Part shown: positions 16,545 through 55,390 of the stretch, in pieces
Layout: the number at the start of each line of letters is the position of its first letter
Position numbering within the stretch: the first letter of the stretch is position 1
From: a virus
Direction: 5' to 3' (one strand)
IMG/VR virus record: IMGVR_UViG_3300032046_006283
Coordinates: 9,125 to 73,124 of that record
DNA: 64,000 nucleotides
Notes under the pieces: generated by a model
What the model saw: only the letters and a program-made list of their open reading frames with translations
The model's database searches: none
What the model was told of the DNA's origin: nothing
Made by a program: the position numbers and the translations under genes

Positions 16545-18571
16545 TATTTTTCTTCCCGCGCTATAATACTTCCTACATATGCTAGTACATTTTCAGCACA
16601 TTCATCACAATATCCATAAACTTCTTTTAACCTTTTCTTTAGTGCATTTAATTTCTCAAGTGTATCATCATCTTTTACTGTTGAAACAGCACCAGAAAGT
16701 TTAATATTGTGTTTCTGGTCCTTAAATAATTTCAACTCCAAAGCACGGTACAATCTTTCATTTGCCTTATAATCAAATGTTTTCTTTTCAATAGTTAAAC
16801 TTGCAATGTAGTTCATAATTTGAGTTCTAAATTCATCCTTTCGAGATTCAGATATATCAATTTCTTCCTCAATAGATCTCATTAACCTTTCATCGGGTTC
16901 CTCATATTGTTTAGTAAATTCATTTCTAACCTTTTCTTTCTGAATATACGCTCTAACATTTTCTATATAACTATTGCAAAGGCGTGCTAAAGCACTATCA
17001 TCTGCACACATTGCACGCTGTATTTCATTTTTTACAATTTCTGTATATTCCTCTTTGACAAGAGCAATAATTTCTTTGTACCTTTTTTTCACATCAATAG
17101 AAGAAATTAATGAATAGTGATCTAAGCCTTCTTCAAATTCTCTCAAAACTAAAAATGGATTTATACAATTTCCAGATTCTACATGCACTAAAGCATTTGA
17201 TATTTTATCTTGAACAAAACGAGGAGAAATTCCTTCCATACCTTCACCAATAGATTCATCTTTAATTTCATCTAAAGCTTCTTCATTAAAATCTGGAATT
17301 GTTTTTCCATTATATAACTTCATTTTATTTACTAAAGTCAAAGAAGCTTTCTTAGGATCTTTCAAACGTGTTAAAATAGCAAACATCGCAGCCACTTCTA
17401 ATGTATGCGGGGCCATATGTTTACCTACAATATTTTTCGGAGAAAAATCTTTTTCATAAATTTTAATTTCATTATTCAATTTTAAACAATATGGAATATC
17501 AATCTTTATTGTTCTATCTCTCAAAGCTTCCATATATTCATTAGATTGTAATTTTTTAAATTCAGCTTGATTTGTGTGACCAATTATTACTAAATCAATA
17601 TCAGTCTGTGCAAAATTCTTTGACTTAATTTTATGTTCCTGACTTGCACAAAGCAAATCATATAAAAAAGCAACATCTAATTTAAGAATTTCTATAAACT
17701 CTATAATACCTCTATTAGAAATGTTAAATTCTCCAGTAAAACTAAAAGCTCTTGGATCGGAATCAGAACCATAAATTGCTAACTTTCTATAATTAACATC
17801 TCCTGTTAATTCTGTACTATCCTGATTCTTTTCATCTTTCGGTTGAAACGTCCCTATTCCTATTCTATCTTTTTCAGAAAATGTAATTCGTTTTACAGTT
17901 ATATGTTCTAAAACTTTCGCCCAATCTCCTTTATAAAAATCCATCAAATTTTTAAATATATATCTACATGGAGGACATAATTCACTTTCTGCCATCAATT
18001 TTTTATCTGGAAACTTATCATAAAACTTTTGACGTAATTCTAAAGGAATCAAATGAACAGGGTCTTCATTCATTGGACATCTAAATTCTTTATCAGGACC
18101 AAAAATATTCTCTGTTTCTGGAGTTGATTTCCAACCAAAAGTAAAAATAGCTCCTGCATCAGTTTTAGAATATTCTTCAAGACCTTTTTTCAAAAGACGG
18201 ACAATAGTTGACTTAGAAGATCCTACAGGTCCATGCAACAAAATAATTCGTTTCTCAGGACCATAACCTAAAGAAGCTGAACGAAACAAATTTACTAAAT
18301 TCATCAAAGACTCTTCTAAATCATAAATTGCGTCCTTTCCATTATTAAGGGGGTCACTAAAAAATTTATAAATTATTACTCTTTTCTTACCAATTGTTTT
18401 TTCTTCGGTACCATAAAACAAAATCATATTATACAATCTACTAAAAGCTGTTTGTATCAAATTTGGATTCTCTTCAAGTTTTTCAATATAGTCTTTAAAG
18501 GAACCACGCCAGTGCAACTTTTTATAAAGCTCAGGATTCTGCGCTTCCTTCAGTTTTTCTACTATATCCAT
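16544..18571 (-). CDS. prkA: PrkA/YeaG AAA+ serine kinase family protein
   Basis: LLHGPVGSSKS, GIGTFQPKDEKNQD, SDPRAF, NRGIIEFIE, GHTN, EALRDR, GISPR. Confidence 0.93.
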   Translation of the reverse strand: MDIVEKLKEAQNPELYKKLHWRGSFKDYIEKLEENPNLIQTAFSRLYNMILFYGTEEKTIGKKRVIIYKFFSDPLNNGKDAIYDLEESLMNLVNLFRSASLGYGPEKRIILLHGPVGSSKSTIVRLLKKGLEEYSKTDAGAIFTFGWKSTPETENIFGPDKEFRCPMNEDPVHLIPLELRQKFYDKFPDKKLMAESELCPPCRYIFKNLMDFYKGDWAKVLEHITVKRITFSEKDRIGIGTFQPKDEKNQDSTELTGDVNYRKLAIYGSDSDPRAFSFTGEFNISNRGIIEFIEILKLDVAFLYDLLCASQEHKIKSKNFAQTDIDLVIIGHTNQAEFKKLQSNEYMEALRDRTIKIDIPYCLKLNNEIKIYEKDFSPKNIVGKHMAPHTLEVAAMFAILTRLKDPKKASLTLVNKMKLYNGKTIPDFNEEALDEIKDESIGEGMEGISPRFVQDKISNALVHVESGNCINPFLVLREFEEGLDHYSLISSIDVKKRYKEIIALVKEEYTEIVKNEIQRAMCADDSALARLCNSYIENVRAYIQKEKVRNEFTKQYEEPDERLMRSIEEEIDISESRKDEFRTQIMNYIASLTIEKKTFDYKANERLYRALELKLFKDQKHNIKLSGAVSTVKDDDTLEKLNALKKRLKEVYGYCDECAENVLAYVGSIIAREEK

Positions 18572-29782: not shown

Positions 29783-30481
29783 TTATACTTTCTCCTTACC
29801 TATCAATTTTAAAAAATTATCTTTACCATGTTTTAAAACAAAACTATCTGGGTCCTCTCCTTCAGGTAATTCTACACTCTTTACTTTCACATCCACCTGT
29901 TGTAAAAGTTTTATAGCTTTTTCAGTTGCTTTTTGACCCGCAGTATCTGGATCAAAAGCAATAACTACTTCATCTACATAACGACATATCAATCTTGCTT
30001 GATCCGAAGTAAATGAAGACCCTCCTAATCCTGAAACATTAGTGATTCCATTTTGAACTAAACTTATAACATCAAATTGTCCTTCAACTAAAATAATATA
30101 ATCTAATTTGTCTATTTCAGATTGTGCTTGGAATAATCCATATAACATTCTACCTTTTTGAAAAATTGGAGATTCTTTTGAATTTCTATATTTTGGTTCA
30201 TCTTCATTAGACAAAGCTCTACCTACAAAACCACAAGGATTATCATAAATATCAAAAAAAGGAAAAATCAAACGGTCACTTAAAGACCATTCATAACGTG
30301 AATCTTCTGGAGCATAACCTAACTTAAAGAGCTCAATCATATCTTTATTAATACTTCTTTTCTGAAGATATTCAAGAGCTTTAGAAGACTTTAATAATTG
30401 CTGTTGAAAATACTCCATAGCAATCTTATTAGTTTCAATTAAATGTTCTAATACTTTATTCATTAACCATTGCCTCATCAA
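29783..30481 (-). CDS. dnaG: DnaG primase catalytic core (TOPRIM) lacking the Zn-binding domain
   Basis: FKLGYAP, RLIFP, GFVGR, PKYRNS, VEGQFDV, FDPDTAG, DPD. Confidence 0.88.
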   Translation of the reverse strand: MMRQWLMNKVLEHLIETNKIAMEYFQQQLLKSSKALEYLQKRSINKDMIELFKLGYAPEDSRYEWSLSDRLIFPFFDIYDNPCGFVGRALSNEDEPKYRNSKESPIFQKGRMLYGLFQAQSEIDKLDYIILVEGQFDVISLVQNGITNVSGLGGSSFTSDQARLICRYVDEVVIAFDPDTAGQKATEKAIKLLQQVDVKVKSVELPEGEDPDSFVLKHGKDNFLKLIGKEKV

Positions 30482-31406: not shown

Positions 31407-32026
31407 ACTTCCTCATATTCTAATTGAATATTTCCAAACGAATCCACATTTGTATTTAAGTCTTTACGACTTGCTAAAAAATCAGCCAAATAAACTATAA
31501 ATTCCAATTTTGTATATTTTTCTAAAGGTTTTTTTACAGATTCAGGAGACCAAGGGCCCATATGATATCTAATCAAAGTAAAAATTTCTTGTTGCCACGG
31601 TTCTAATTTATCACCTGCATATCCTTTATAATATTTTTCAACTAATATAGGATGGTTTACATAATCCTCATAACTACCTTTTCCTTTTCCACCTTTACAC
31701 CCATCGTGTAAAATACAAGCTGCAATAACATTGTCTCGTGTTTCATCATTAATTTCATTTCCAAAAGCACTTATAAATTTCAAAGCAAACCACACTACTC
31801 TTTTCGTATGAATAAGCAATCCTGAAGTTGAAAGAGCACAAGCTGGATGATACTTTCCAGTGCTTGATGCAGGTTGCGTCCAGAAATATTCTGGAAAAAT
31901 ATCTAATGTTTCTTTAACCCATTTACGAGTTTCGTTGTTTTTAATTAATGCTAAAGTCTTTTCAAATACTTGTTTTTTACTTTTTTCCGATAATACTTTC
32001 ATTTTACTTTCTCCCAAATTAAACAA
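31403..32026 (-). CDS. HD-domain phosphohydrolase
   Basis: PASSTGKYH, GLLIHT, ILHD, HMG, LADFLAS. Confidence 0.8.
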   Translation of the reverse strand: MFNLGESKMKVLSEKSKKQVFEKTLALIKNNETRKWVKETLDIFPEYFWTQPASSTGKYHPACALSTSGLLIHTKRVVWFALKFISAFGNEINDETRDNVIAACILHDGCKGGKGKGSYEDYVNHPILVEKYYKGYAGDKLEPWQQEIFTLIRYHMGPWSPESVKKPLEKYTKLEFIVYLADFLASRKDLNTNVDSFGNIQLEYEEV

Positions 32027-32571
32027 ACACGAAACCTATGATTTGTACTACGTATAATACCAATGGTACCTACTAAACGTAATTCTTCTTTTCTATACAT
32101 AGGATATGCTTGGTCAAGCCAAACTAAAAAACCTCCAGGTTTCAATATTTTATAACATTCTTTAACAACTTTATTACGTTTAATTAAAGGAGTTCCATAA
32201 TGTAAAGCATCTTCTTCAGAATAAGGAGGATCTGCAACAATTAAATCAATAGAATTAGATTCAAAATATTTAGATAATTCATGAGCATCTCCTACAATAT
32301 CAGGATTCAAATCTTGATTTATATCAAATCGAATCCCTTTTACATCTTCAGAAAGACTTCCACTAAATAAATGAACAATTTTTTCACAATCAGGAAACAT
32401 ACACATAACTCTTTTTAAAAAAGTAGGTGGATATTCTCCATAAAATTTATTTTTAGATTGATAATTATTACCTATCATCCATACTCCATAAAGCCATCTG
32501 CCGGATACTACCAAAGGAGGATATTTAGGAAAACACTCGCTATACAATTTTGTTCTATCAAATAAATTCAT
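31999..32571 (-). CDS. Amino-methyltransferase (DPPY type), probable DNA adenine MTase
   Basis: HLFSG, FD, GDA, ADPPY, LKPGG. Confidence 0.75.
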   Translation of the reverse strand: MNLFDRTKLYSECFPKYPPLVVSGRWLYGVWMIGNNYQSKNKFYGEYPPTFLKRVMCMFPDCEKIVHLFSGSLSEDVKGIRFDINQDLNPDIVGDAHELSKYFESNSIDLIVADPPYSEEDALHYGTPLIKRNKVVKECYKILKPGGFLVWLDQAYPMYRKEELRLVGTIGIIRSTNHRFRVCLIWEKVK

Positions 32572-34870: not shown

Positions 34871-35144
34871 GCTTCTGTATTAAACGTTCAATTTTACTTT
34901 CTTCTTGAAATAATTTCTTTTTAATTTTTTCAAGCTCTTTAATTTTATTCTTCTTTTCCTTAATAGTATTCTCTAATTTTTGAGTCATCTTCAACATCTC
35001 AGATATCAAAATTTCTCTTTCTTTTTCTAACCTTCTCACGTTAGCTTCTAAATTCTCTAATTTACTTGGAAACAATGACATTCTATTTTCCTCCTTTAAT
35101 TTTTTTCTTCGGTGGTTTGCAAAACCACGGCATTGCTCTATCAT
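34863..35144 (-). CDS. Small coiled-coil protein (start probably near 35081)
   Basis: GGAGG RBS upstream of the internal Met (MSLFPSK). Confidence 0.45.
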   Translation of the reverse strand: MIEQCRGFANHRRKKLKEENRMSLFPSKLENLEANVRRLEKEREILISEMLKMTQKLENTIKEKKNKIKELEKIKKKLFQEESKIERLIQKLG

Positions 35145-36024
35145 AAGTAAAAAATGGAACTATTGCTCCAACAGGATATTTTTTAGCATATCTTTTACAA
35201 ACTTCATAATAATCAGATAAAGGTATTCCAAGCCATTTACCTTCGTTCCACAGTTCATTCAATTTTGTACCTTTCGCAGGGCGACAATACATTGCATGCA
35301 CTTGAATAACATTTGGTAAAGATAAAGAAAGTTTAATAGACTCTTCAAATTCTTTTTTCGCAGTTTCATTATCAGAAACATAAGGCTTTGCTAATATATA
35401 AATAACATATTTAAAATTATCATTTTTACTTACTACTTCTTTAACCTTTTCAAAATTGAATCCTTTATTAATTTCTTTGCTCCTATTTGGAAATACCGTC
35501 TCTAATCCTATACAAACTTCCATTTCAATTTCTGGTTTTTCATCCGGAATAAATTCTGGACGTGATTCTACTCTTAGTTTCTCTACTCCATTTTGTTTTA
35601 AATACTTAACAATATCTTTCCAAGAAACTTGTAATTGTTCAAAATCAAAAAATGATCCAGAGTTAAAAATTTTAAACCAAGGAGGAAAACCTCCATATTT
35701 TATTTTATAATCATCTAATTGTTCCCAAACATTTAATGCTGTAGTAGTTAAATCAGTACCTTTTTCAAAACCACAAAAACAACATTTTCGCCAACTGCAA
35801 GGTCTTACAGTTAAACAAATTGTTTGTATATCTGTCCAAACTGGCTTTATATATTTAGACACCTTTTGAACTTTCAACACTTCAACTTTATCTGTTTCAT
35901 GCCCTGCTTTTTTCAATCCTTCCATGAGTACTTCTGTTACGTGAATTTCATCTATTGCTTCTAATCTAATCCACGCAAGATTCCCTTTATAATTAATATT
36001 CACAGCAAACATAGACATAACCAT
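35083..36024 (-). CDS. Radical SAM protein, RaSEA (archaeosine synthesis)-like
   Basis: CSWRKCCFC cluster motif, KIFNSGSFFD, VESRPEFI, EVCIGLET, INKG, YILAKP, GTxLxELW; these match the archaeal RaSEA family pattern. Confidence 0.75.
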   Translation of the reverse strand: MVMSMFAVNINYKGNLAWIRLEAIDEIHVTEVLMEGLKKAGHETDKVEVLKVQKVSKYIKPVWTDIQTICLTVRPCSWRKCCFCGFEKGTDLTTTALNVWEQLDDYKIKYGGFPPWFKIFNSGSFFDFEQLQVSWKDIVKYLKQNGVEKLRVESRPEFIPDEKPEIEMEVCIGLETVFPNRSKEINKGFNFEKVKEVVSKNDNFKYVIYILAKPYVSDNETAKKEFEESIKLSLSLPNVIQVHAMYCRPAKGTKLNELWNEGKWLGIPLSDYYEVCKRYAKKYPVGAIVPFFTYDRAMPWFCKPPKKKIKGGK

Positions 36025-36077
36025 ATTTCCTCCTTATTAACTCAATGAATATAAAACTGATATATTTCATCTTCCTC

Positions 36078-36092
36078 TATATTATACACAAA
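36078..36092 (-). promoter_or_regulatory. Putative promoter motif TTTGTGTATAATATA
   Basis: Identical 15-mer at 43253-43267; both are intergenic, contain TATAAT and precede an RBS. Confidence 0.55.
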
Positions 36093-36094
36093 CT

Positions 36095-36898
36095 TTATAT
36101 TATATCTTTTGTTTTTTCAGCTTCAGTTAATATATCTATATCACACAATTTAATAATTTCAAGAAAAGGTACATATCTATGAAAATTTCTAAACACTTCA
36201 TATTTATTAATTGAAAAATATTGTTTGCATCGTAAATACACTTGCCACAAATCTGGATAACTATTTGTATAAGATAAAACAAAAGGATCATTCCAAAATT
36301 CTTCTGGAACAACTCCTATTGTAGTTATTACTACTTTATGATAATCTTCTAAAGGATATGGAAAAATATTATTCACTACACTTCCATAAATTTCTTGATG
36401 TGTTTTAGAAACATTATAAGGTCTCTTAGCAGAACAAGGTAATAACAAGCACTTCTTTTTATCAGTTTTAAAATTGCACATTTTATCTAACAATTCACGA
36501 ACATAAGACCTATTATAAGAATGGAAACTTGACATTACAGTTTTATTTGTTAATTTATCTTTAGTAATACCGCTTAAATCCGCTTGCATTAAAATATCAG
36601 AACATATAGGTGTAAATGACGCAAACATTTCTATTAAATCTCTTAGACAATTATTTTCTTGTGCTCGTTTTATCCATTCCAAAATCTCTTCAATAGAATA
36701 AATTGTCCACAATCCATAATCAATGTCTTTCCTGATAGTTTCTCTTTCAACATCATGGCCAAAATAAATTAAAAATGGCACTTGACTTAATGGTGCATTT
36801 TTTATTAACCATCTTTCTTTACGCCCGCGCGAAGCAAAAGAGCGTAAAGCAGTTCCATTATAGGTAAATGGATACTTTTTAAAATCTACTATATTCAT
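36095..36898 (-). CDS. ArcS-like (DUF5591) archaeosine synthase domain protein
   Basis: LLLPCSAKRPYxxSKTH, VITTIGVVPEE and Y-P motifs of the ArcS core; adjacent to the RaSEA-like gene. Confidence 0.75.
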   Translation of the reverse strand: MNIVDFKKYPFTYNGTALRSFASRGRKERWLIKNAPLSQVPFLIYFGHDVERETIRKDIDYGLWTIYSIEEILEWIKRAQENNCLRDLIEMFASFTPICSDILMQADLSGITKDKLTNKTVMSSFHSYNRSYVRELLDKMCNFKTDKKKCLLLPCSAKRPYNVSKTHQEIYGSVVNNIFPYPLEDYHKVVITTIGVVPEEFWNDPFVLSYTNSYPDLWQVYLRCKQYFSINKYEVFRNFHRYVPFLEIIKLCDIDILTEAEKTKDII

Positions 36899-38139: not shown

Positions 38140-38443
38140 CTGTTTTCTCCAATATTTTTTTCAAAGATAAATCTAATTCTTTATCTTTTTCTCTGGTCAT
38201 TTTTATATCTATATTAACAAGAGCCTTCACAGCTTGAAACATTTGATTATTAATTTCTTTTAACTTTTCTTTATCTTCCAGTTTATCTAAATCTAATTCA
38301 ATTTCTGCTTCTAAAATTGTAGGAAGAAAATCCCAAAAACTATAACTTAAAGAACTCGCAATTTTTCTTCCATATCCTTTTGTTATTTTAATAATTTTTA
38401 AAGCCATCTTAAAAATCCTCCTCTTTATTTTCTTGAATATCAC
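38123..38443 (-). CDS. Hypothetical protein
   Basis: ORF; probable start at the internal MALK. Confidence 0.5.
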   Translation of the reverse strand: MIFKKIKRRIFKMALKIIKITKGYGRKIASSLSYSFWDFLPTILEAEIELDLDKLEDKEKLKEINNQMFQAVKALVNIDIKMTREKDKELDLSLKKILEKTDGNSK

Positions 38444-39437
38444 TATTTCTCTTTTCCCAAATCTTAGTATAAACTAAATCATATGTTACAGGATCTTTTA
38501 ACAAAGACATAAATCCATCTTTACCATTTGCAGTAACTCTGTCATCATCAATAAGAGTATATTTAGGTCCTGACTTACGAATTACATTCCTACGTAATCC
38601 TTCTTCTAAAAGTAAAAGTTCAAAATTAACACCTTTTTCATAAAGAACAGGAAATTCACCTCTTCTTCTTGGAGGAGCTAACTTATTTTTTACAACACAA
38701 ACATCAATACTATGGCCCAAAAGAATGTCTCCTTTTTTAACATCTGACTTCATTACTTTCTTTACTTTATATCTTTGAGAAGCATAAAACTTTAAAGCTC
38801 TACCTCCAGGAGTCTTTTCAGGGTCGCCCCACATAACTCCAACTGCATCTCTTACTTGATTAACAAAAACTAAACAAGTTTCTGTTTTATTCAATTCAGG
38901 TGCAATTTTTCGTAACCCTTTACCCATTATACGTGCAAGAAGTGCCATTTGTTGATCTTCCATAGCACCTTCTATTTCTGCTTGAGGTACTAATCCAACA
39001 ACAGAATCAATAACTACATATGCAAATATATTACTTTGAACAAATTCTAAAGCCATATCAAAAGCTTCTTCAGCACTTACTTGACCTACTGCTTCGATCA
39101 TATTTGTATCTATTCCATAAATTTCCATCCACTCTTTTGGAGTGCCATACTCTAAATCAAAATAGACAGAAGGTTTATTATACTTCTTTTGTGCATTGCC
39201 CATTGCTTGAAGTGTTAACAAACTTTTACCACTGCTTTCTGGACCAAAAATTTCTATCATATTACCTTGAGGAAAACCTCCTATACCTGAAGCAATATCA
39301 ACAGTAATAATACCAGTTGAATAAGCATTCTTAGAAACTTTATCTAAATTTATTATTTTGTCTTTATATTTATTCTCCATGTATTTCTTAAACACTTTTG
39401 GATCTTTTGGAACTTCACCTTTACTACTTTTAGTCAT
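38409..39437 (-). CDS. recA: RecA recombinase
   Basis: GIGGFP, EIFGPESSGKS, VIDSV, ARxMxxxLRK, NQVR, TPGGRALKFYAS, KNK. Confidence 0.95.
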   Translation of the reverse strand: MTKSSKGEVPKDPKVFKKYMENKYKDKIINLDKVSKNAYSTGIITVDIASGIGGFPQGNMIEIFGPESSGKSLLTLQAMGNAQKKYNKPSVYFDLEYGTPKEWMEIYGIDTNMIEAVGQVSAEEAFDMALEFVQSNIFAYVVIDSVVGLVPQAEIEGAMEDQQMALLARIMGKGLRKIAPELNKTETCLVFVNQVRDAVGVMWGDPEKTPGGRALKFYASQRYKVKKVMKSDVKKGDILLGHSIDVCVVKNKLAPPRRRGEFPVLYEKGVNFELLLLEEGLRRNVIRKSGPKYTLIDDDRVTANGKDGFMSLLKDPVTYDLVYTKIWEKRNSDIQENKEEDF

Positions 39438-40069: not shown

Positions 40070-40879
40070 TTAACTTTCACTATTATATTTTTCCATCGTC
40101 TCTATATTCTTTAATACAAGTTTTTCAACACTTTCCGAAACAGTTTTAATACCAAAATAATCATCAGGCCTTTTCGGAGCTTCAAAATATAAATCGTGTG
40201 TTTCTTTAATATCAATATCATTCAAAGCACATATAAACGCTTTTGAAGAATCAGCACTTCTAATAAATTCAAAACGTTTCAAATACTTAATCTCAATAGG
40301 ATGTCCTCCTATACCAAGACAATGAAATTGTTTATTATATTTTGAGAAATTAAAATGTTTATTCAAATAACTTATAACTGCAATCCTTAATAAACTTTTA
40401 GGAATACCCCACGCTCGAAATGCTTCATTTATAGCACCATATGAAAAACCTATAGTATCTACTTCATTCATTTGTAATAACTCTAAAAAACATTTTTCAT
40501 ACTCATCAATAGTTTTTCCTTGAGGAACTGCCATTAAACTTAATGACTGAATAATTGATGATGTGTTATTTGATAATTCATTCAGAGCTTCTTTCACACG
40601 TTGAATAGTTATTGCACCATCAAGATAACAATCTGGTAAAACTAATTCTTTAGCCCAAACCAATTCAGTTGCTTTAATAACATCATCTAAAGGAAAAGCA
40701 TTACCATATTCAAAAGCACCATTATCCATTATAATAAAATCATTTCTGAAACTTTTTTCTCGATACACCTCTTCATACTGCTTGTTTTTCAAAACTTCAG
40801 GTGCAATTAAAAGATGTATAGTAGAATTTTGAGTACACATTCTTACATAATTTACAGGAACAATATGACAAATCTTCAT
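40070..40879 (-). CDS. TGT-fold DpdA-like transglycosylase (probable start MKICHIV at 40879)
   Basis: IMDNGAFE, LPD, AVPQG, HCLG and RSADSS correspond to TGT/DpdA catalytic-barrel motifs; the genome also carries queCDE. Confidence 0.7.
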   Translation of the reverse strand: MKICHIVPVNYVRMCTQNSTIHLLIAPEVLKNKQYEEVYREKSFRNDFIIMDNGAFEYGNAFPLDDVIKATELVWAKELVLPDCYLDGAITIQRVKEALNELSNNTSSIIQSLSLMAVPQGKTIDEYEKCFLELLQMNEVDTIGFSYGAINEAFRAWGIPKSLLRIAVISYLNKHFNFSKYNKQFHCLGIGGHPIEIKYLKRFEFIRSADSSKAFICALNDIDIKETHDLYFEAPKRPDDYFGIKTVSESVEKLVLKNIETMEKYNSES

Positions 40880-40880
40880 T

Positions 40881-41417
40881 TTAAAACTCCTTGCAAATAA
40901 TATCTTCAATATGTTTAACTCTTTCTTCAACAGAGCCTCTTATTATAAAGTAATTAGGATACAATGAATAAAAAGTCTCTAATAATTTTTGTATCTCACT
41001 ATCAATAGTTTTTTGATACTCAATATCTTCAGCTCTAACACCATCCCTAACTAATGGAAATTCTATTGGAAGGTAAAAAACAAAATCTGCAAAATGTTGT
41101 GCTTCTAATTGACACAATGCAAATAATAATCTCAATACATAATCAGGTAATTTATTATTTACTGCATAAGCAGTTTGCCGTATTATAGAACTTACAGAAA
41201 TAAAATCTTGTTTTGTATTTGTATTTAATTGATTCAAATACCTTCTAATTGTTGTTAACTGACTTTCTATGTCATTAGTTTTATTTATTTGAAATCCTTC
41301 TTGCTGTGCATTACGATGAATACCATCAATAAGGTGTAAAGAAGGATGTCTCTTTTGAATTTCCTTTGCTAAAACTGATTTACCTGTTCCTTGAGCACCT
41401 ACTAATAAAATTTTCAT
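40881..41417 (-). CDS. P-loop nucleoside monophosphate kinase-like protein (AAA_28/NadR-like)
   Basis: GAQGTGKS, FYLPIEF, DGVR, RGSVEER. Confidence 0.75.
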   Translation of the reverse strand: MKILLVGAQGTGKSVLAKEIQKRHPSLHLIDGIHRNAQQEGFQINKTNDIESQLTTIRRYLNQLNTNTKQDFISVSSIIRQTAYAVNNKLPDYVLRLLFALCQLEAQHFADFVFYLPIEFPLVRDGVRAEDIEYQKTIDSEIQKLLETFYSLYPNYFIIRGSVEERVKHIEDIICKEF

Positions 41418-41429
41418 ATTTTTTCCTTC

Positions 41430-41873
41430 TTAAACAATTCCTATAATATTTGGAAATAATATCATTAACTCTCTTAAAAAAGAGTCTTGAGAATCAGAAA
41501 TATGAATAGCATTAGCTGGTAATTTTGAACCAAATAATTGTCTAATTGTTCCTTCTTCTGCTTTTTCTGGATCAGTATCACCCGCAAGTCTTCTTAAATT
41601 AGAAATGAATTGAGAATATGAAATACCCGAAGTATCTTCAACAACTAAAACTAAAACAGGATCAGAACTCATATATCTAACATTACGTTCAAAAAAATCT
41701 TTTCCTTTATGTTCTTGATAAAACTCACAAGCCCTTTCATAACTTAATAGCATTGTTTGTGCAATTGTAATACGACTTTTTCCTAACCATTCTATTATTG
41801 CAATTATTCTTCCAACATTACCTTCTTTAACTGCATCTGGTTTAATAATACATAAACATAAACATTTAGACAT
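41430..41873 (-). CDS. ndk: Nucleoside diphosphate kinase
   Basis: IIKPDA, FYxEHxGKxFF, GxTDP, GTIR, NAIHxSDS. Confidence 0.93.
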   Translation of the reverse strand: MSKCLCLCIIKPDAVKEGNVGRIIAIIEWLGKSRITIAQTMLLSYERACEFYQEHKGKDFFERNVRYMSSDPVLVLVVEDTSGISYSQFISNLRRLAGDTDPEKAEEGTIRQLFGSKLPANAIHISDSQDSFLRELMILFPNIIGIV

Positions 41874-44465: not shown

Positions 44466-45227
44466 TTATTTTACTTTAACTTTCATTAACTCTTTAACAA
44501 TTATATTTTTATTATTCAAAATATCACTTTCCCAAAACCTCAATACTATAAATCCATTTTCTTTTGCTAATTGCTCATTTTTAATATCTCTTTCTTTTTG
44601 TTTTAATTGTATTTCATTTAATTTACTATAAATTTTCGGATTACCATGCCAGTAATCTCCATCTACTTCTACTAAAACGTTAGTGTTCAAAAAATGAAAA
44701 TCTGCTAAATGGCTACCTACACAGTATTGTTTTTCATAAGGAATGTTCAAAAATATTAGTATCTCTTCCATTTTAAGTTCAGGTTTAGTATCTTTGTAAG
44801 GACCTTTATAATTTTGAAATTGAAATAATGTTTTTTCGCGTATTTTATTTTTTGTTCTTTCAGAAAGTTTTCTTCCTTTAAGTTTTTCACTTCCCTTTTT
44901 TATTCTTTCATCTGTTTCCTTTGTTAATCCTTTATTCCAAGCTTTACGCTCCATATTCGCAATACTTATTTTTTTCTTTATAACATCAGAAAGGGGTTTC
45001 CTTTTTTTACCTTTTTTTAAATTGCTTAATTTTTTTCTTGTATCATTAGAACGTTTTTGACCTGTATTTGCAATTTTTATTTTTTTAATTACTTCAGGGC
45101 GATTCATTACCTCTTTTGTATGATTACTTATTAACTTTTTTATTTCATTTGCTTTTTCAGTTCCAAATATTTCTTCAAAAGTTTTACCTTTATTCCATGG
45201 AATATGCCCCTTTATATATTTACTCAT
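44466..45227 (-). CDS. Freestanding endonuclease: NUMOD3 repeats plus a DUF559/Vsr-like domain
   Basis: PWNKG, AWNKGLTKET, TKPE, ADFH, VEVDGDYWHG, LRFWE. Confidence 0.82.
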   Translation of the reverse strand: MSKYIKGHIPWNKGKTFEEIFGTEKANEIKKLISNHTKEVMNRPEVIKKIKIANTGQKRSNDTRKKLSNLKKGKKRKPLSDVIKKKISIANMERKAWNKGLTKETDERIKKGSEKLKGRKLSERTKNKIREKTLFQFQNYKGPYKDTKPELKMEEILIFLNIPYEKQYCVGSHLADFHFLNTNVLVEVDGDYWHGNPKIYSKLNEIQLKQKERDIKNEQLAKENGFIVLRFWESDILNNKNIIVKELMKVKVK

Positions 45228-47749
45228 CCCTTCTCCTTTAATTCTACCAATTTACCCCATCTATCACCTACAGAAATATCAACACCCATCTTAACACGAA
45301 TAGGACCTGCTATAGTATCATAGCCTCTTGCAACTTCCTCTTTTATTATTTTAATAAAATTATCTTTTTCTTCTATTGGAACTTCATAAATTAAAGAGTC
45401 ATGAATAGTAAGAACTAATTTTGCTTTACTCTTTATTTGTTTTAAACGATTATAAATTCTAATGCCAGTTATAGCAGTAATATCAGCAGCCATCCCTTGT
45501 ATTGGACTATTAACAGCTTGCCTCATTGCATCACTTCGTTCTTTTCTATCATGCATATCCATATTATCATTCCAAGGAATTTGTGCTGCAGGAAGTCTTC
45601 TAATTCTTCCAAAAGCGTTTCTTACTTCACCATATTTTTGAGCTACTTTTTGAATATTAAATATCCATTCCTTTGCTTTTGGATATCGATCAAAAAATAC
45701 TTTTCTAATATATTCAGCTTCTTTTTCTGTCATTCCATGCTCTTCTGCTAAACTTTTTGCACCACGGCCAAACATAATTCCAAATACAGAGTTTTTTGCT
45801 TGCTGCCTTTCCTCTTTTGTAATCGTTTCTATTTTCTTACCAAAACAAACAGATGCTGTTTGTTTATGAATATCAATACCAGATTTTATATCTTCAGTCA
45901 TTTTTGGATCGTTAGAATAATGGCCCCAGCATCTAAATTCTGCTTGCCTTTGATCAATTTCTACTAAAACACATCCAGAATTAGGTATAAAACATTCTTT
46001 AATTTCACTGCCTCGAGGAATGTTTTGAAGATTAGGATTCGTACTCGAAAGTCTACCAGTTACTGTTCCATCTACATGATAATCTGTATGAATTCTACCA
46101 TTCTCATCTACTCTATTAAGCATTCCTATAACATAAGTACTATATAATTTACTTAAATCACGATGTTCTTTCAATTTAGTTAATTCTGGAGAGTATTCTA
46201 CTAAAACATCTAAAGTTTCTGCATCTGTAGATAAATTCCCTTTTTTAGTTTCTTTTACCGGTTCAAGTCCAAGAACATCAAATAACAATATTCGTAATTG
46301 TGTAGGAGAATTCATATTAAAAACAATAGGTCTTACATATTTTTGCACATATTGTTCTTTAGTAAGTTTTGATTTTATTTTTAAACTATCATACTTCTTT
46401 TCAACTTTTTTCGCAGCAATATCCCACAATCTTTTTTCAGTAATGTTCACTGCGTCTGTTTCTCTAAATTCTTTTTCAATGACTTTTAAACGTTCTGAAT
46501 ATTTAACTTCCAATTCTCTAAGGCGCTCTATATCTAATCGGACGCCATCATATTCAGTATCTATTAATACTTTCTGAAATGGTATGGTAATCTTGTTAAG
46601 CAGCCTCATTAATCCTTGTTCTTCAAGCATTGGCTTAAATTTCTTATAACAACAAAAAGTTGCATCAGCATCCATCGCAGAATATTTCCAAAGAATATCA
46701 TTTGGAATAATTGCATAAGAAATATTTTTTGTTGTTAAATATTTATCCAACACATCTTCATATCGCCCCATATCAGGGAAATAGCGCAAGACCATAGGAG
46801 TTAATCCATGTCCTTCTCTTCCTGCATTCTCATCTAAAAGATGATGCGCAAGCATTGTATCAAACGCAAAATTATTTACTTCAATCCCAAAAGTTCTTAA
46901 AAACTGAATATCAAATGATAAATTTTGTCCTATTTTATAAACATTATTTTCTAACACTTTTTTTAGTTCACTCACTACATATTCTTTTTCTTCGGAGTTC
47001 CAAAACTCTTGACAATATTGTTGCAATATAGGCAAAACTACTCCTGTTCTTTCTTTCCAAGAAAAACTACAACACAAAATTTTATCTTTTTTAGGATCTA
47101 AACCACTTGTTTCTAAATCCAAAGTAAAAGCTTCAGCACTGTTTAATTTCTCAAAAAGTGTTTTAGCTTTCTTTATCGTATTCGCAACTACATATTTTGC
47201 AGGTTCTGGTTCTACAGGATTATTCAACCATTTTAAAACATTTCTTAAATGGTCTATCATTGTCTCTTGCATTCCTAAATTTCTACAAATATATGCGGGG
47301 TGATAAGTAGGCATTATCCAACAATTATATTTATCACTCCAATAACGAGATCCTGCATATTTTGTAATACCATCTAAATTAAGTAAATATTGAAGAGCAA
47401 CATTACCTAAAGGAACAATAATTTTTGGTTTAGTTATTCTAATATCTTCTTCAAGGTAAGGAACACAAGCATTTATTTCTTCTGGTTCGGGGTTTCTATT
47501 ATCGGGAGGACGACACTTCACTACATTATCAATTCTAAAATCCTCTCTACGTGCTTTTATTAATTGTAAAATAATATTAAGGCGCTTACCAGCAGCTCCT
47601 ACAAAAGGCTCTCCTATTTCGTCTTCTTCTACTCCTGGGGCTTCTCCAATTAACATTATATTAGCGGGAGTAGGACCTATACCTTTAATACAAGAGTTTT
47701 TACACTCTTTAAATAAAGAACACTTATTACAATTCATATACTTTACCAA
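45224..47749 (-). CDS. polA: Family A DNA polymerase with an N-terminal family-4 uracil-DNA glycosylase domain and a 3'-5' exonuclease
   Basis: UDG: CxxC, GEAPG, PFVG, KCRPP, YHP; exonuclease: DLET; polymerase: TGRLSS, NLQN, DxxQAE, RxxAK, NSPIQG, HD. Confidence 0.93.
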   Translation of the reverse strand: MVKYMNCNKCSLFKECKNSCIKGIGPTPANIMLIGEAPGVEEDEIGEPFVGAAGKRLNIILQLIKARREDFRIDNVVKCRPPDNRNPEPEEINACVPYLEEDIRITKPKIIVPLGNVALQYLLNLDGITKYAGSRYWSDKYNCWIMPTYHPAYICRNLGMQETMIDHLRNVLKWLNNPVEPEPAKYVVANTIKKAKTLFEKLNSAEAFTLDLETSGLDPKKDKILCCSFSWKERTGVVLPILQQYCQEFWNSEEKEYVVSELKKVLENNVYKIGQNLSFDIQFLRTFGIEVNNFAFDTMLAHHLLDENAGREGHGLTPMVLRYFPDMGRYEDVLDKYLTTKNISYAIIPNDILWKYSAMDADATFCCYKKFKPMLEEQGLMRLLNKITIPFQKVLIDTEYDGVRLDIERLRELEVKYSERLKVIEKEFRETDAVNITEKRLWDIAAKKVEKKYDSLKIKSKLTKEQYVQKYVRPIVFNMNSPTQLRILLFDVLGLEPVKETKKGNLSTDAETLDVLVEYSPELTKLKEHRDLSKLYSTYVIGMLNRVDENGRIHTDYHVDGTVTGRLSSTNPNLQNIPRGSEIKECFIPNSGCVLVEIDQRQAEFRCWGHYSNDPKMTEDIKSGIDIHKQTASVCFGKKIETITKEERQQAKNSVFGIMFGRGAKSLAEEHGMTEKEAEYIRKVFFDRYPKAKEWIFNIQKVAQKYGEVRNAFGRIRRLPAAQIPWNDNMDMHDRKERSDAMRQAVNSPIQGMAADITAITGIRIYNRLKQIKSKAKLVLTIHDSLIYEVPIEEKDNFIKIIKEEVARGYDTIAGPIRVKMGVDISVGDRWGKLVELKEKG

Positions 47750-50549: not shown

Positions 50550-51251
50550 TTACTCCTTTTGATATTCTATTGTATCTTTTAAATTGTTTGCTTCAAACGC
50601 TGCTAACCTTTCAATACAAGCGGGACATTTACCACAAGAAGGTTTACCTTTATAACAGGAATGAGTTAAATGATATGGAACACCTAATTTCATTCCTATA
50701 TCAACGATTTCTATCTTTGTCTTTTCAACAAATGGTGTATGAATAAATACTTCCACTCCATGCGTAGAACCTAAACTTAATGCCTTTTCTAAGCAAGTAA
50801 AGAAAGGTCTACGGCAATCTCTATATGATTCATAATCTTCTTTCACAGGAGTCATATAAATTTCAATAGGATTAAGTTCTAAAGATTCTCCGTATGCCGC
50901 TGCTAATGTAGCTAACATTACATTACGAAAAGGAACAACTGTTTGAATCTGATCTTCCATATTTTCAGGAACCTTCCAAGTATTATCTGTTAAAGCACTA
51001 TGACCTATGTGAGTTAAATCAAAATTTAAAACCTTTAAATCTTTTACTACATAATCTCCATACCTTTTTTGATACTCTTCAACAACCTTTTTTGCAGCTT
51101 CCAATTCCACGACATGTTTTTGACCATAATTAACACTCAAAGAATAAATTTCACTCATTACAAATTCAAATTTAGGATCTAACAAATAACCGAGTAAAGT
51201 TGCCGAATCCATACCACCTGATAAAAGAATTATACATCTTGGTCTTGTCAT
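50550..51251 (-). CDS. queC: 7-cyano-7-deazaguanine synthase
   Basis: LSGGMDS, NYGQKH, VPFRN, YxDCR, SCY, CGKCPAC. Confidence 0.92.
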   Translation of the reverse strand: MTRPRCIILLSGGMDSATLLGYLLDPKFEFVMSEIYSLSVNYGQKHVVELEAAKKVVEEYQKRYGDYVVKDLKVLNFDLTHIGHSALTDNTWKVPENMEDQIQTVVPFRNVMLATLAAAYGESLELNPIEIYMTPVKEDYESYRDCRRPFFTCLEKALSLGSTHGVEVFIHTPFVEKTKIEIVDIGMKLGVPYHLTHSCYKGKPSCGKCPACIERLAAFEANNLKDTIEYQKE

Positions 51252-51265
51252 TTTATTATTCTCCT

Positions 51266-51736
51266 TTATTTCTTATTGTTTTCATAAGGAAATTCGATCC
51301 AACTATCTGCGTCTGCCCCTGCAATGAAATAATCAGGATCAAACTGCGAACCTCTTTTATAATATAATACACTTGTTCTAATATTATTGAACCCTTTTTC
51401 TTTATATAAATCAACTACTACCTGCATTGTCTTTCCCGTATCACATAAATCATCAATGATCAAAATTTTACTTTCTTTTGTGATATCAGGAAAGCACAAA
51501 TATGAAGGTTTTCCAAGTTTTAACTTTGATTGTTTATTTTCTTTAGTATAAGAACTAGCAACAATTATGTCTAGTGGAACGTTATAAGCTTCAGATATTA
51601 TAAGTCCTGGAAGAAGTCCTCCACGAGAAATCGCAACAACAAGATCAATTTCTTCTTGAGCATGAACCAACAACATTTCTTTAAGTTTATTAATTAGTTG
51701 TAAATAATATTCCCAAGATACTTTTTCTATATTCAT
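51266..51736 (-). CDS. Type I purine phosphoribosyltransferase
   Basis: AISRGG, PRPP loop LIIDDLCDTGKT, WIEFPYE. Confidence 0.85.
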   Translation of the reverse strand: MNIEKVSWEYYLQLINKLKEMLLVHAQEEIDLVVAISRGGLLPGLIISEAYNVPLDIIVASSYTKENKQSKLKLGKPSYLCFPDITKESKILIIDDLCDTGKTMQVVVDLYKEKGFNNIRTSVLYYKRGSQFDPDYFIAGADADSWIEFPYENNKK

Positions 51737-52518
51737 TTATTAACCTCTAATAAACTATTTATTGTTTTTTCGCAACATTCTTTTTTTATATCTATAACAA
51801 AACATCTTCTACCTGTTTTTTCTGCCTCAACTAATGTAGTGCCGGATCCTACAAAAGGATCAAATATAATATCATTAATAACTGAGTACATTCGAATAAG
51901 TCTGTAAGGTATTTCATTTGGAAATGGAGACATTTTTTCATAATCTTTTTTACCTGCAATTGCCCAAATTTGAGAAAACCACTTATTTCTTTCTTCAAAA
52001 GTATAAGCACTTGCATATCTATTTTTATCTTTTGACAAAAACTTTCTAATATTTCCTTTTCTAAATAATAAAATAAATTCACAGTCAAGAGTTACATAAG
52101 CATTAGTTGGAAGCATTCCACTCCCTAAAAAACTATTAGGTTTATTTGTTGGTTTTTTCCACAAAATATAAGGTAAAACATTAAAACCCAAATTTCTAAA
52201 ATTATTCAATATTATAGAATGATTTTCCCATAATTGAAAATTATCATTAATTTTCCGTAACGCATCTCCTATATTAATACAAACAATACCTCCTTCAATA
52301 ACACTATCAAATAAACAATCCCATACTCTATTCAAATATAAATGTTGAGACTGAAAGTTTCCTTCCCAATTCCACTTTTCAAACATAGGATAAGGAGGAG
52401 ATGTAACTACTAAATTAACTAAATGTGTTCCTAAAAGATATTTAATATGCGCAGGATTTGTAGCATCCCCCCACATTACTCGATGTTTTCCATTAGTCCA
52501 AAATTCGCCAAAATTCAC
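51733..52518 (-). CDS. DNA methyltransferase, beta class (SPPY, probably N4-cytosine)
   Basis: VTSPPY upstream of DPFVGSGTT; PFP...RLIRMYS. Confidence 0.85.
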   Translation of the reverse strand: MNFGEFWTNGKHRVMWGDATNPAHIKYLLGTHLVNLVVTSPPYPMFEKWNWEGNFQSQHLYLNRVWDCLFDSVIEGGIVCINIGDALRKINDNFQLWENHSIILNNFRNLGFNVLPYILWKKPTNKPNSFLGSGMLPTNAYVTLDCEFILLFRKGNIRKFLSKDKNRYASAYTFEERNKWFSQIWAIAGKKDYEKMSPFPNEIPYRLIRMYSVINDIIFDPFVGSGTTLVEAEKTGRRCFVIDIKKECCEKTINSLLEVNK

Positions 52519-53180
52519 TATACACCTCTTTTGTTTCCCCAGATTATTTTATGTATTTGAAGACTAAGTTTTACATTAAGATTATCTTTTAAAATCCATT
52601 TCGCAAGATCTTTTGGATTCAATTTTTCCCAAACCGGAGAAAACAAAATACTTCCTTTAATATTAAAATTTGTAATAATTTTCTTAGCAAAATTATAATC
52701 ATTTTTATTAGCAATTACAAATTTCACCTCATCATCTTGACGAATATCTTTTAAATTAATCCAACACATTTTTTCAGTCATTCCAGTAGAAGGACATTTT
52801 ATATCCATGCTAAAAGTCACATATGCTAAATACTTTTGTATAGGAATACTTCCGTTAGTTTCAATTAAAATAAAATATCCATTATTATATAATTTCTCAA
52901 CAAGAACAAAAGAAGTAGGATCTAACAATGGTTCTCCTCCTGAAAGTAATATATTTTTACAATTATATTTTTTTACTTGATTTAAAATGTCATTTATTGA
53001 CATTTCTTTTCCTTGATTATAAGCATATGGAGTATCACAAAAACCTTTTCCATTATAATTACAACGTAAATTACATCCTGTAGTTCTTATAACAATAATA
53101 CGAGTTCCACTAGTTTTCCCTTCGCCAGATAAAGTATAATATATTTCATTAATTTTCAATTTATCATCTTTCAATATCAT
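52518..53180 (-). CDS. queE: 7-carboxy-7-deazaguanine synthase
   Basis: EIYxTLSGEG, GCNLRC(insert)FCDT, GGEPL, IETNG, KFVI, QIHK. Confidence 0.9.
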   Translation of the reverse strand: MILKDDKLKINEIYYTLSGEGKTSGTRIIVIRTTGCNLRCNYNGKGFCDTPYAYNQGKEMSINDILNQVKKYNCKNILLSGGEPLLDPTSFVLVEKLYNNGYFILIETNGSIPIQKYLAYVTFSMDIKCPSTGMTEKMCWINLKDIRQDDEVKFVIANKNDYNFAKKIITNFNIKGSILFSPVWEKLNPKDLAKWILKDNLNVKLSLQIHKIIWGNKRGV

Positions 53181-54099: not shown

Positions 54100-54903
54100 T
54101 TAAAAATCCCAATTTCTTTTAAAATAAGCTACTGCATTATGTGCGTGAATACTTTCAAAAGAAATAACTTTAACACTATAACCTTTAATATTAGATATTT
54201 TATCTAGAGCAAGAGCAGTATCCCTTGCAACATCTTCTACAAACTTTGGATTCTTAAAAGAAAATTCAGTAACATACTTTTCATCTGGTCTTTTCAGTAC
54301 AGGATAAATTCCACAACTACCCATTTTTTCTAATATCGAAACAACATCTTCAATCCATAAAGGTTTTCCAACAAAGTTCAAACGTGCTGTTACAAGCGCT
54401 CTCTGATTATGTGCTCCAAATTTGCTTATTTCTTTACTGCAAGGACATAAAGTAATTATAGGAACAGATACCTCTAAATAAAACTCATATTCTTCAGAAG
54501 TTAATCGTCCAACAAAAGCACATTCATATCCTTGAATTCCAGCAACTTTTTTTACAGGTGATTCTTTCGGAATAAAATACTTAAATTTTATACTTGCATA
54601 TGAATCTTTTGTTTTAAGGCTCCTTTTTAATTCTTTCAAAAATTTCTTTAACTTTTTCGAATTCATTGTTTTATAACGATAATTCATTAAAGTAACAGCA
54701 AAACGGCTCATATTTATACCTTTTATATCTTCTGAAAGATCACCATACATTGATACAATCGCTTGAGTATGTTGATATTTTCTTTTTTCTTTCCTACCTA
54801 CTAATATTGGAAAACTAACATCTTCTATACCAACTCTATGAAGAGGAATTCCGCGTTCATCTTTCGTAGCTTGCACATCGGGCAACTGCTCTTCTTTTTG
54901 CAT
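54100..54903 (-). CDS. folE2: GTP cyclohydrolase I type B (probable start MQKEEQ at 54903)
   Basis: LPDVQ, RVGI, KGINMSR, TLCPCS, GAHNQR, KRPDE, NPKFVED, ESIHAH. Confidence 0.92.
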   Translation of the reverse strand: MQKEEQLPDVQATKDERGIPLHRVGIEDVSFPILVGRKEKRKYQHTQAIVSMYGDLSEDIKGINMSRFAVTLMNYRYKTMNSKKLKKFLKELKRSLKTKDSYASIKFKYFIPKESPVKKVAGIQGYECAFVGRLTSEEYEFYLEVSVPIITLCPCSKEISKFGAHNQRALVTARLNFVGKPLWIEDVVSILEKMGSCGIYPVLKRPDEKYVTEFSFKNPKFVEDVARDTALALDKISNIKGYSVKVISFESIHAHNAVAYFKRNWDF

Positions 54904-54940
54904 TTTACAGAATCTCCTTCTTTTATAGGATTCAAAATAA

Positions 54941-55390
54941 TTATTTTTCGTATATAGCACTTGAAGTAAGTGTTTCAAAAACTTCAACACTTACAAATTT
55001 AATTTTACTAACTCCTTGTTGAATAGAACTTCCAAAATGATTTGGCCCCCAATTAGTTACAATGTAAAAAAGATGAAACAAATGCTTAGCCATATTTTCT
55101 GCTGTAGGATTACCTTGTAAAGTAAATATTTTTGTTTTTTCAGATAGTAAACGTACTAAAGGATCTTTATCATATAATATAAGAGAATGATCCCAATTAA
55201 TATCAATCCAATTTTTAATTTCTCTCTTTATATATGAAAAATCAAGAACCATTCCCATCTCATCTAACTCTTTAGCTTCAAAAGTAAAAATTGCTTTATA
55301 AGAATGTCCATGGATATTACCACAAGAACCTTTATATCCTAGCAACCGATGTGCCGCTTCCCACTTAACTTCTTTGGTTACTTTATACAT
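54941..55390 (-). CDS. queD: 6-carboxytetrahydropterin synthase
   Basis: AAHRL, CxxIHGHSY, GMVLDF, DH, PTAEN, ET. Confidence 0.92.
   Translation of the reverse strand: MYKVTKEVKWEAAHRLLGYKGSCGNIHGHSYKAIFTFEAKELDEMGMVLDFSYIKREIKNWIDINWDHSLILYDKDPLVRLLSEKTKIFTLQGNPTAENMAKHLFHLFYIVTNWGPNHFGSSIQQGVSKIKFVSVEVFETLTSSAIYEK

Follow-up and report, generated by a model that had tools for sequence, protein, structure and literature searches.

A candidate two-step archaeosine route in a large tailed phage: adjacent ArcS2-like and RaSEA-like genes

Two enzymes share the making of archaeosine (G+) in T. kodakarensis: ArcS alone yields only a lysine adduct of preQ0 (preQ0-Lys), and RaSEA is required for G+ (PMC11298593). 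In phages, 7-deazaguanine modifications of DNA protect against restriction, and the authors who report this regard the role of ArcS homologues in phages as "less clear" (PMC6884629). Phage proteins with a DUF5591-only architecture have been named ArcS2 (Cui et al. 2023, PMC10516641); Vibrio phage nt-1, which has DpdA2, is reported to hold only traces of archaeosine in its DNA (dG+) (Hutinet 2019, PMC6884629; Cui 2023, PMC10516641). The queuine lyase QueL, which belongs to the same superfamily as RaSEA, converts queuine to preQ1 (PMC11130926). Here we describe a stretch of viral DNA from IMG/VR (record IMGVR_UViG_3300032046_006283) in which an ArcS2-like gene stands directly upstream of a gene for a RaSEA-like radical S-adenosylmethionine (SAM) protein. 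The whole stretch analysed, hereafter the window, is 64 kb long and covers bases 9125-73124 of a 73-kb virus record that is estimated to be ~33% complete. We propose, with a fair degree of confidence, that this phage modifies its own DNA with archaeosine through a two-step chemistry like that of Euryarchaeota, via a DpdA3-type enzyme, the ArcS2-like protein and the radical SAM protein.

The ArcS2-like and RaSEA-like gene pair

The two genes are separated by a gap of 70 nucleotides (nt):

36095..36898, minus strand: ArcS2-like protein of 267 amino acids (aa), with the DUF5591/ArcS C1 catalytic core only
35083..36024, minus strand: RaSEA-like radical SAM protein of 313 aa, directly downstream of the ArcS2-like gene

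An earlier note, made from the sequence alone, had placed both open reading frames (ORFs) at these positions on the minus strand, and every string that it quoted is there: LLLPCSAKRPYNVSKTH in the ArcS2-like ORF, and KIFNSGSFFD, VESRPEFI and IGLET in the radical SAM ORF.

Gene context is the strongest argument for the two proteins working together. Radical SAM genes of the phage type were found on seven contigs (the window, L004/L177, L176, L175, L178, L165 and L166), and an ArcS2-like ORF adjoins the radical SAM gene in all six that can be assessed, in three gene orders; L175, which has only 106 nt upstream, was left out of the adjacency count, and the counts also leave out L170 (E 2e-5). The ArcS2-like gene precedes the radical SAM gene in the window, L004 and L176. 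The order is DpdA3-like, ArcS2, radical SAM in L165/L166, and DpdA3-like, radical SAM, ArcS2 in L178. Because the adjacency recurs in a relative that is 62-77% identical (L004) and again in two phage-type lineages that are further removed (L165/L166 and L178), the pairing is not due to chance, and the co-occurrence survey for which the earlier note had called turned up a conserved pair. Within the two distant lineages the pair is also contiguous with a homologue of the window ORF at 40070-40930, with FolE or QueC, and with a DNA polymerase. The positive control consisted of 53 archaeal RaSEA loci whose upstream flank measures 1500 nt or more; a DUF5591-bearing ORF lies directly upstream of RaSEA in 43 and further upstream in 4 more. 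The negative control consisted of QueL loci, and a DUF5591 or DpdA3-like ORF was seen in none of these 63.

Few examples of the pair turned up in the collections searched. By tblastn at E<=1e-3, the radical SAM protein has no match among 50,697 GenBank phage records, and pattern scans of IMG/VR (2.9 million contigs) yielded one further contig of the window lineage together with L165/L166 of a second lineage. Some other candidates were set aside. L167/L168 and L169, which came from the CSWGKC pattern, are unrelated: they encode radical SAM proteins of greater size, B12-type or otherwise, and have no DUF5591; they lie in glycosyltransferase or unassigned contexts and were dropped from all counts. 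L164 was not counted as a pair, since its ArcS2 and TgtA/DpdA-like genes have no radical SAM gene nearby. On that viral contig (L164:3162-4681) a canonical-motif ArcS2 of 198 aa overlaps a TgtA/DpdA-like gene of 308 aa, a gene pair that resembles the STSV-type pair of DpdA and ArcS.

The first gene does encode an ArcS core, as had been read from the sequence. It matches Pfam DUF5591 (PF17884) at E 1.6e-9, with 38.2 bits against a cut-off of 26, and the NCBIfam ArcS model NF040592 at E 1.2e-14, with residues 68-201 on profile positions 208-344 of 575. DUF5591 is the only family match; the N-terminal domain that resembles tRNA-guanine transglycosylase (TGT), the C2 part and the PUA part are all absent. 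The NF040592 equivalog requires more than 440 bits and a full-length architecture, and the ORF scores 53.9 bits, so the ArcS2-like protein is not a canonical tRNA ArcS. The C1 motif of ArcS is given as PC-X3-KPY-X2-S-X2-H (PMC10516641) and reads PC-SAK-RPY-NV-S-KT-H in the window, with every position kept save for a change of K to R. C155, R159, P160, Y161, S164 and H167 are invariant in all seven members of the ArcS2 lineage, and the N-terminal ~120 residues are lineage-specific. Among PDB sequences the match is the DUF5591 protein AF0587 (2q07), in an alignment that covers the motif, and 2q07 is likewise the top and sole relevant Foldseek match for the AlphaFold2 (AF2) model, which has a predicted local distance difference test score (pLDDT) of 81 and a predicted template modelling score (pTM) of 0.60. 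By tblastn the ArcS2-like protein matched only the Vibrio phages GR11A and GR7B, at ~20% identity, the nt-1 ArcS2 being too distant. In GR7B (L006, 5866-8475) a 335-aa DUF5591 protein, annotated as hypothetical, adjoins two genes annotated as QueC; a RaSEA-like gene was not found in the GR7B genome.

The second gene had been read as RaSEA-like, a reading that stands on the best family match, the motifs and the gene context; the protein scores below the RaSEA cut-off and does not nest inside canonical RaSEA. Its best NCBIfam match is TIGR01210 RaSEA (E 2.5e-22, 79.5 bits), with MnmL/YtqA (6.6e-7) and Elp3 (2.9e-4) as runners-up, and it has no Pfam match at E<=0.01. The RaSEA motifs SGSF(F/L)D, ESRPE(F/Y), GLE(T/S) and NKGF are kept and align with those of canonical RaSEA, and the triad C76-x4-C81-x2-C84 is invariant in 7/7 lineage members. 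The conserved core lies at ~35083-35850 (residues 59-313), and close homologues, of 239-252 aa, start at residue 59. A 58-aa N-terminal extension at 35851-36024 (minus strand) is absent in six of six homologues; we consider that it is probably translated, because a strong Shine-Dalgarno site, a perfect AAGGAGG, precedes it. A predicted complex of the ArcS2-like protein with the radical SAM core (residues 59-313) scored 0.00 in two runs and is given no weight here, in either direction, on the question of binding.

A profile of the phage radical SAM lineage, run against 1.84 billion representatives, drew 478 proteins at E<=1e-3. The long hits, of ~340-370 aa, are canonical archaeal RaSEA (5/5 tested, scoring 314-362 bits on TIGR01210). 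A second set has the short CxWxKCxFC form in common with the phage protein, and nine of the ten longer members tested are single chains in which the radical SAM domain carries a C-terminal DUF5591. The fusions are archaeal, mostly from DPANN; their loci, gathered from an alignment of 8 fusion sequences, number 150 confirmed, with 80 of them listed. A further protein, P0025 (544 aa), has a short-form RaSEA-like domain and, instead of a DUF5591 domain, an unassigned N-terminal region of ~314 residues.

The sole solved relative of the radical SAM protein is QueL (PDB 6p78; E 3.7e-11 by profile, 9.8e-10 pairwise). QueL genes from Clostridia were included for comparison, with MnmL genes as the outgroup. 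On hidden Markov models (HMMs) of each group the window protein scores 118.6 bits for RaSEA, 113.7 for the fusions, 34.0 for QueL and 25.9 for MnmL, whereas QueL's own members score 338-416 bits on the QueL HMM (n=11), a family-level similarity that the window protein fails to reach. It has ESRPEF, GLET and INKGF in common with RaSEA and the fusions, where QueL instead has ESHWSY and LNKN. In a tree of 80 rows (6 of them MnmL outgroup rows, 3 of which were shortened by the start-codon rule), the RaSEA/QueL superfamily has a support of 100 and splits into five lineages, with no firmly supported branching order among them: the phage type (8 rows, 99 by the Shimodaira-Hasegawa-like approximate likelihood ratio test, SH-aLRT), QueL (11 rows, 100), the fusions joined by some of the short forms, canonical RaSEA (36 rows, 99) and an orphan pair. 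The QueL branch is very long, with a stem of 1.96-2.26. A subset of 36 rows was obtained by dropping 44 (24 canonical RaSEA, 6 QueL, 3 MnmL, 2 phage-type, the fusion P0134 and 8 short-form), which left L157, L159 and L160 as MnmL rows; in this tree canonical RaSEA is the sister group of the phage clade (SH-aLRT 85).

Precursor genes, transglycosylase and other content of the record

The genes that would supply and insert the precursor are the following:

54100..54990, minus strand: GTP cyclohydrolase FolE2 (NF010200 247.7 bits, cut-off 215)
54941..55390, minus strand: QueD-like 6-pyruvoyl-tetrahydropterin synthase (phrog_2389 E 7.4e-33)
52518..53180, minus strand: QueE, 7-carboxy-7-deazaguanine synthase, radical SAM (TIGR04349 E 2e-64; Radical_SAM match)
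50550..51251, minus strand: QueC, preQ0 synthase, 233 aa (Pfam QueC 180 bits; TIGR00364 E 2.2e-43)
51266..51736, minus strand: purine-type phosphoribosyltransferase (Pfam Pribosyltran E 5e-19; XPRT/HGPRT-like NCBIfam matches)
40070..40930, minus strand: candidate DpdA3-type DNA guanine transglycosylase (by fold and tblastn)

Judged by these matches, the preQ0 pathway is complete in the record, with FolE2, QueD, QueE and QueC all present. QueF was found neither in the window's record nor in the 90%-complete relative G001 at E<=0.1, and no Gat-QueC was found, QueC being unfused in both, at 233 aa and without an attached glutamine amidotransferase domain. The phosphoribosyltransferase is flanked by QueC and a DNA methyltransferase and is possibly part of the pathway, as a nucleotide-level branch. 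A phosphoribosyl transferase recurs inside the DpdA3/7-deazaguanine cluster of Flavobacterium phage immuto_2-6A (L173). There are two DNA methyltransferase-like genes in the window, at 31999-32571 and 51733-52518 (minus strand), the second of them inside the preQ0 gene cluster.

The likely start of the candidate transglycosylase is an internal Met, which gives a protein of 269 aa (~40070-40879). Its AF2 model (pLDDT 92.6) is a TGT-like TIM barrel, and tRNA-guanine transglycosylases make up 49 of its top 50 Foldseek hits in the PDB, the best being ArcTGT 1iq8 (E 1e-6). By tblastn it matches CGPG_00065 of Cellulophaga phage phiST (E 5e-10; 82% of the query aligned, at 25% identity) and the annotated DNA guanine transglycosylase (DpdA) of immuto_2-6A (E 1e-4). 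Across 18 sequences, little or no variation is seen at D52, D83, P119-Q120-G121, H186-x-L188-G189 and D210, positions that may correspond to the TGT catalytic residues. The ORF has no family match, and the ArcTGT/TGT Pfam models have no match in the record at E<=1, which is expected because DpdA3 is a distant subfamily. CGPG_00065 and the immuto DpdA both belong to DpdA3 as named in PMC10516641, where that subfamily is associated with complete replacement of G. Since a DpdA3 homologue with the TGT fold is present, and in two lineages directly adjoins the pair, insertion at the level of DNA is plausible. Directly upstream of the DpdA3-like gene lie a P-loop AAA_28 kinase-like gene (40881-41417) and a nucleoside diphosphate kinase (NDK) gene (41430-41873), both on the minus strand.

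The window is part of a large tailed phage, with replication and cell-wall genes of bacterial type:

10389-12302: large terminase
29783-30481: DnaG-type primase
38409-39437: RecA, bacterial type (233 bits)
45224-47749: family-A DNA polymerase
55390-56010: sigma-like protein (weak match)
57256-58647: DnaB helicase
61513-62073: YkuD L,D-transpeptidase

SbcCD-like proteins, a DnaC-like loader and NDK are also encoded in the window, and the ArcS2/radical SAM pair is embedded among replication and recombination genes. A bacterial host fits because of the bacterial-type replication and cell-wall genes together with the AAGGAGG ribosome-binding site before the radical SAM gene. The host markers on which the earlier note had relied are therefore real (YkuD, RecA, the DnaG-type primase and DnaB), with the sigma-like protein as the weak one. 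The same note had taken the Fe-S enzymes to suit an anaerobic host, a suggestion that fares less well: one homologue of the DpdA-like protein carries the source label of a Cloacimonetes metagenome-assembled genome, but QueE is a radical SAM enzyme too and occurs also in phages of aerobes. The G+C content of the window is ~29%, nearly every long ORF is on the minus strand, and the 64 kb contain no tRNA genes. An ORF of 2431 aa (1974-9269, minus strand) has a short ParB-like stretch as its sole PHROG match. A homologue of the PrkA/YeaG-like "serine kinase" (16544-18571, minus strand) has 47% identity to a gene from an uncultured phage of 595 kb and ~33% identity to Thermus phages phiYS40 and TMA.

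A proposed route and its alternatives

The observations from which we set out are the homologies of both proteins, their conserved adjacency, the link through the fusions, a full set of genes for the precursor and the lack of both QueF and Gat-QueC. We propose that the phage makes preQ0 itself via FolE2, QueD, QueE and QueC, and that the DpdA3-type transglycosylase would exchange guanine in phage DNA for preQ0. The ArcS2-like protein would then add an amine, most likely the lysine epsilon-amino group, to the preQ0 nitrile. Finally, the adjacent RaSEA-like protein would cleave the C-N bond of the adduct, leaving the amidine of archaeosine (dG+). We infer that the substrate is DNA and not a nucleotide, that lysine donates the amine and that the route ends in dG+.

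Published results for nt-1 bear on the division of labour between the two enzymes. In E. coli with the nt-1 ArcS2, dPreQ0 went from 926 to 0 and from 1607 to 11 per 10^6 nt, and the same tests gave only 4-7 dG+ per 10^6 nt (PMC10516641, Table 3). A search of nt-1 at E<=0.1 revealed no RaSEA-like gene. This loss of dPreQ0 with little dG+, in the product of a phage without a RaSEA-like gene, suggests an unmeasured adduct that accumulates, and would fit a missing second enzyme. More tentatively, we hypothesize that the cassette of DpdA3, ArcS2 and RaSEA brings the full archaeal two-step chemistry to phages, that most or all G may be dG+, given the complete replacement of guanine by DpdA3 enzymes elsewhere among phages, and that phages of the nt-1 type may mainly hold an undetected adduct of the dPreQ0-lysine type. 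We regard this wider hypothesis as possible rather than probable. If true, such an adduct in ArcS2-only phages would add a new base to those known from natural DNA and would account for why the published reconstitution with nt-1 genes gave almost no dG+.

Several findings weigh against the proposed route. The 79.5 bits of the radical SAM protein are far under the TIGR01210 equivalog cut-off of 212.15, and its cysteines are spaced Cx4Cx2C, against Cx7Cx2C in 9 aligned canonical RaSEA. Although it is sister to canonical RaSEA in the 36-row tree, it forms a lineage of its own outside that clade, a position that touches on an outcome, grouping outside RaSEA, which the earlier note had named as counting against its claim. 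Approximately unbiased (AU) tests on the 36-row set leave a clade of the phage protein with QueL unrejected (p 0.574), and also a clade with the fusions (p 0.68, at a slightly higher likelihood). Phylogeny alone therefore cannot tell RaSEA from a QueL-type lyase; profile scores, motifs and gene context do discriminate: by profile score the protein lies much nearer to RaSEA than to QueL or MnmL, and its gene context resembles that of RaSEA and not that of QueL. On the side of the ArcS2-like protein, the motif is slightly off consensus (RPY for KPY, with P154 being S in one relative) and the fold match to AF0587 (2q07) is weak (Foldseek E 2.2e-3, probability 1.00, 138 columns, template modelling score 0.31). 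The DpdA3-like gene is ~3 kb from the pair in the window and ~18 kb from it in G001. STSV-2 has genes for both DpdA and ArcS, yet dCDG and not dG+ is reported from it (PMC10516641), so ArcS-type genes are no reliable predictor of dG+. Lastly, the presence of a purine phosphoribosyltransferase among the preQ0 genes would also suit a route at the level of nucleotides.

Along such a route, which we think unlikely, the same two enzymes would act on a nucleotide: the phosphoribosyltransferase would turn preQ0 into its nucleotide, ArcS2 and the radical SAM protein would make the G+ nucleotide, and the base would reach DNA via nucleotide metabolism, or by release followed by DpdA3 exchange. The position of the phosphoribosyltransferase next to QueC is consistent with this, as are its counterpart in the immuto_2-6A DpdA3 cluster and the NDK and P-loop kinase-like genes that adjoin the DpdA3-like gene. 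The ArcS of T. kodakarensis refuses the free preQ0 base and needs the nucleoside or 5'-phosphate, the preQ0 nucleoside 5'-monophosphate being accepted (PMC11298593); this favours action after insertion, or on a nucleotide. However, its Km (Michaelis constant) for the nucleotide is very high, at 433 uM (PMC11298593). According to Cui et al. (PMC10516641), all known 7-deazaguanine phages encode DpdA, and post-replicative insertion is proposed there. In L165 and L178, moreover, the DpdA3-like gene is contiguous with ArcS2 and the radical SAM gene, with no phosphoribosyltransferase between.

The pair could instead act on preQ0 and yield something other than dG+, either a stable preQ0-amine adduct or another radical-derived, uncatalogued DNA base, and this too we judge improbable. 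The separate lineage of the radical SAM protein, its score under the RaSEA cut-off and its different cysteine spacing would suit a different product, and so would the lineage-specific N-terminal parts of both proteins (~120 residues in ArcS2, the extension in the radical SAM protein). Unexpected products have been reported with phage ArcS-type genes, namely dCDG in STSV-2 and dADG with dPreQ0 in nt-1 (PMC10516641, PMC6884629). Nevertheless, the RaSEA motifs around the SAM/cluster site are retained, the fused archaeal relatives presumably make G+ in tRNA, and the known chemistry is the simplest.

That the pair, like its archaeal relatives, modifies tRNA (of the host or of the phage) rather than DNA is very unlikely. 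Every ArcS-RaSEA activity characterised in the account of PMC11298593 is on tRNA, but the phage ArcS2-like protein is devoid of both the PUA part and the TGT-like N-terminal domain, the record has no ArcTGT/TGT Pfam match and the window no tRNA genes. DpdA3, the type to which the accompanying transglycosylase belongs, is known from phages with modified DNA, and the setting of the pair is one of replication and recombination genes. Least credible of all is that the radical SAM protein acts in 7-deazaguanine salvage, as a queuine lyase of the QueL type or as an unrelated lyase, with the ArcS2 adjacency mechanistically meaningless: QueL is the sole solved relative, with Cx4Cx2C spacing and a similar length in common and a joint clade that the AU test does not reject, but we set it aside on a QueL-HMM score of 34 bits against 338-416 for its members (and 119 on the RaSEA HMM), on the absence of ESHWSY and LNKN, on DUF5591 neighbours in 0/63 QueL loci against 6/6 assessable phage-type loci, and because with preQ0 made de novo and no QueF, queuine/preQ1 chemistry would have no obvious place.

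The two-step route to dG+ in phage DNA offers a testable answer to the question of how ArcS-type proteins make phage dG+, namely that ArcS2 alone may be half of an enzyme. It predicts a lysine-type adduct as the intermediate and puts forward three natural gene cassettes for this chemistry. It would be a third viral route to dG+, beside Gat-QueC and ArcS2 alone, and the first joining of ArcS/RaSEA-type chemistry to the high-efficiency DpdA3 transglycosylases, and it would connect the short RaSEA-like enzymes of a phage lineage with the uncharacterised single-chain proteins of DPANN archaea. We expect these points to be of clear interest to the field of phage 7-deazaguanine DNA modification. A two-step archaeosine route with ArcS2 and a RaSEA-like enzyme has probably not yet been described for phages. 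The earlier note knew of no characterised phage ArcS+RaSEA pair, and our search of the literature agrees, as no report of a phage RaSEA was found, although an entry present only in the supplements of PMC10516641 (its lists of phage ArcS2/DpdA), which lay outside that search, would escape it. RaSEA is not mentioned in the text of PMC10516641 or PMC6884629; "radical SAM" occurs once in the former, in the title of a reference, and is absent from the latter.

Comparison with known systems

The ArcS-RaSEA system of Euryarchaeota (T. kodakarensis; NF040592 alpha, TIGR01210 beta) has both protein families in common with the phage. ArcS lies upstream of RaSEA there as in the window, the precursor is preQ0 in both, and both conserve the ArcS core motif and the RaSEA motifs. 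The archaeal ArcS ORFs are ~600-730 aa long, whereas the phage ArcS2 has 267 aa and is without TGT-like and PUA parts; the archaeal RaSEA has Cx7Cx2C, and the phage radical SAM protein is of the short Cx4Cx2C form and under the equivalog cut-off. The presumed substrate of the phage enzymes is DNA, reached via DpdA3, in contrast to archaeal tRNA, reached via ArcTGT, and the host of the phage would be a bacterium.

The archaeal fusions of a radical SAM domain with DUF5591 resemble the phage proteins in the short form (CxWGKCxFC) and in an ArcS core without PUA. They are chromosomal genes that encode a single chain with the radical SAM domain N-terminal, whereas the phage has two genes in the reversed order (ArcS2 first in the window), and the phage proteins form a clade of their own (SH-aLRT 99). 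QueL (6p78; Clostridia) belongs to the same superfamily as the phage radical SAM protein, and both have Cx4Cx2C, the motif NSGS(F/C)F and a length of ~230-250 aa; both would, we suggest, cut a C-N bond on a 7-deazaguanine side chain. QueL differs in its very long separate branch, low cross scores, other motifs and lack of an ArcS partner (0/63).

Vibrio phage nt-1 is also a large phage with a standalone DUF5591 protein, preQ0 genes and a DpdA. Its experimentally active ArcS2 likewise has RPY for KPY, and is more degenerate, without the motif P and H. The nt-1 phage has neither a radical SAM partner nor DpdA3 but DpdA2, whereas the window phage has both the radical SAM partner and a DpdA3-type transglycosylase. 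In the latter respect it resembles the DpdA3 phages (Cellulophaga phiST, Flavobacterium immuto_2-6A and Campylobacter CP220), which have clustered preQ0 genes and, in phiST and immuto, a homologous transglycosylase. These phages carry dDG/mdPreQ1, fdPreQ1 or dADG, made via DpdL/M/N or QueF (PMC10516641), where the window phage would use ArcS2 and a RaSEA-like enzyme to make dG+.

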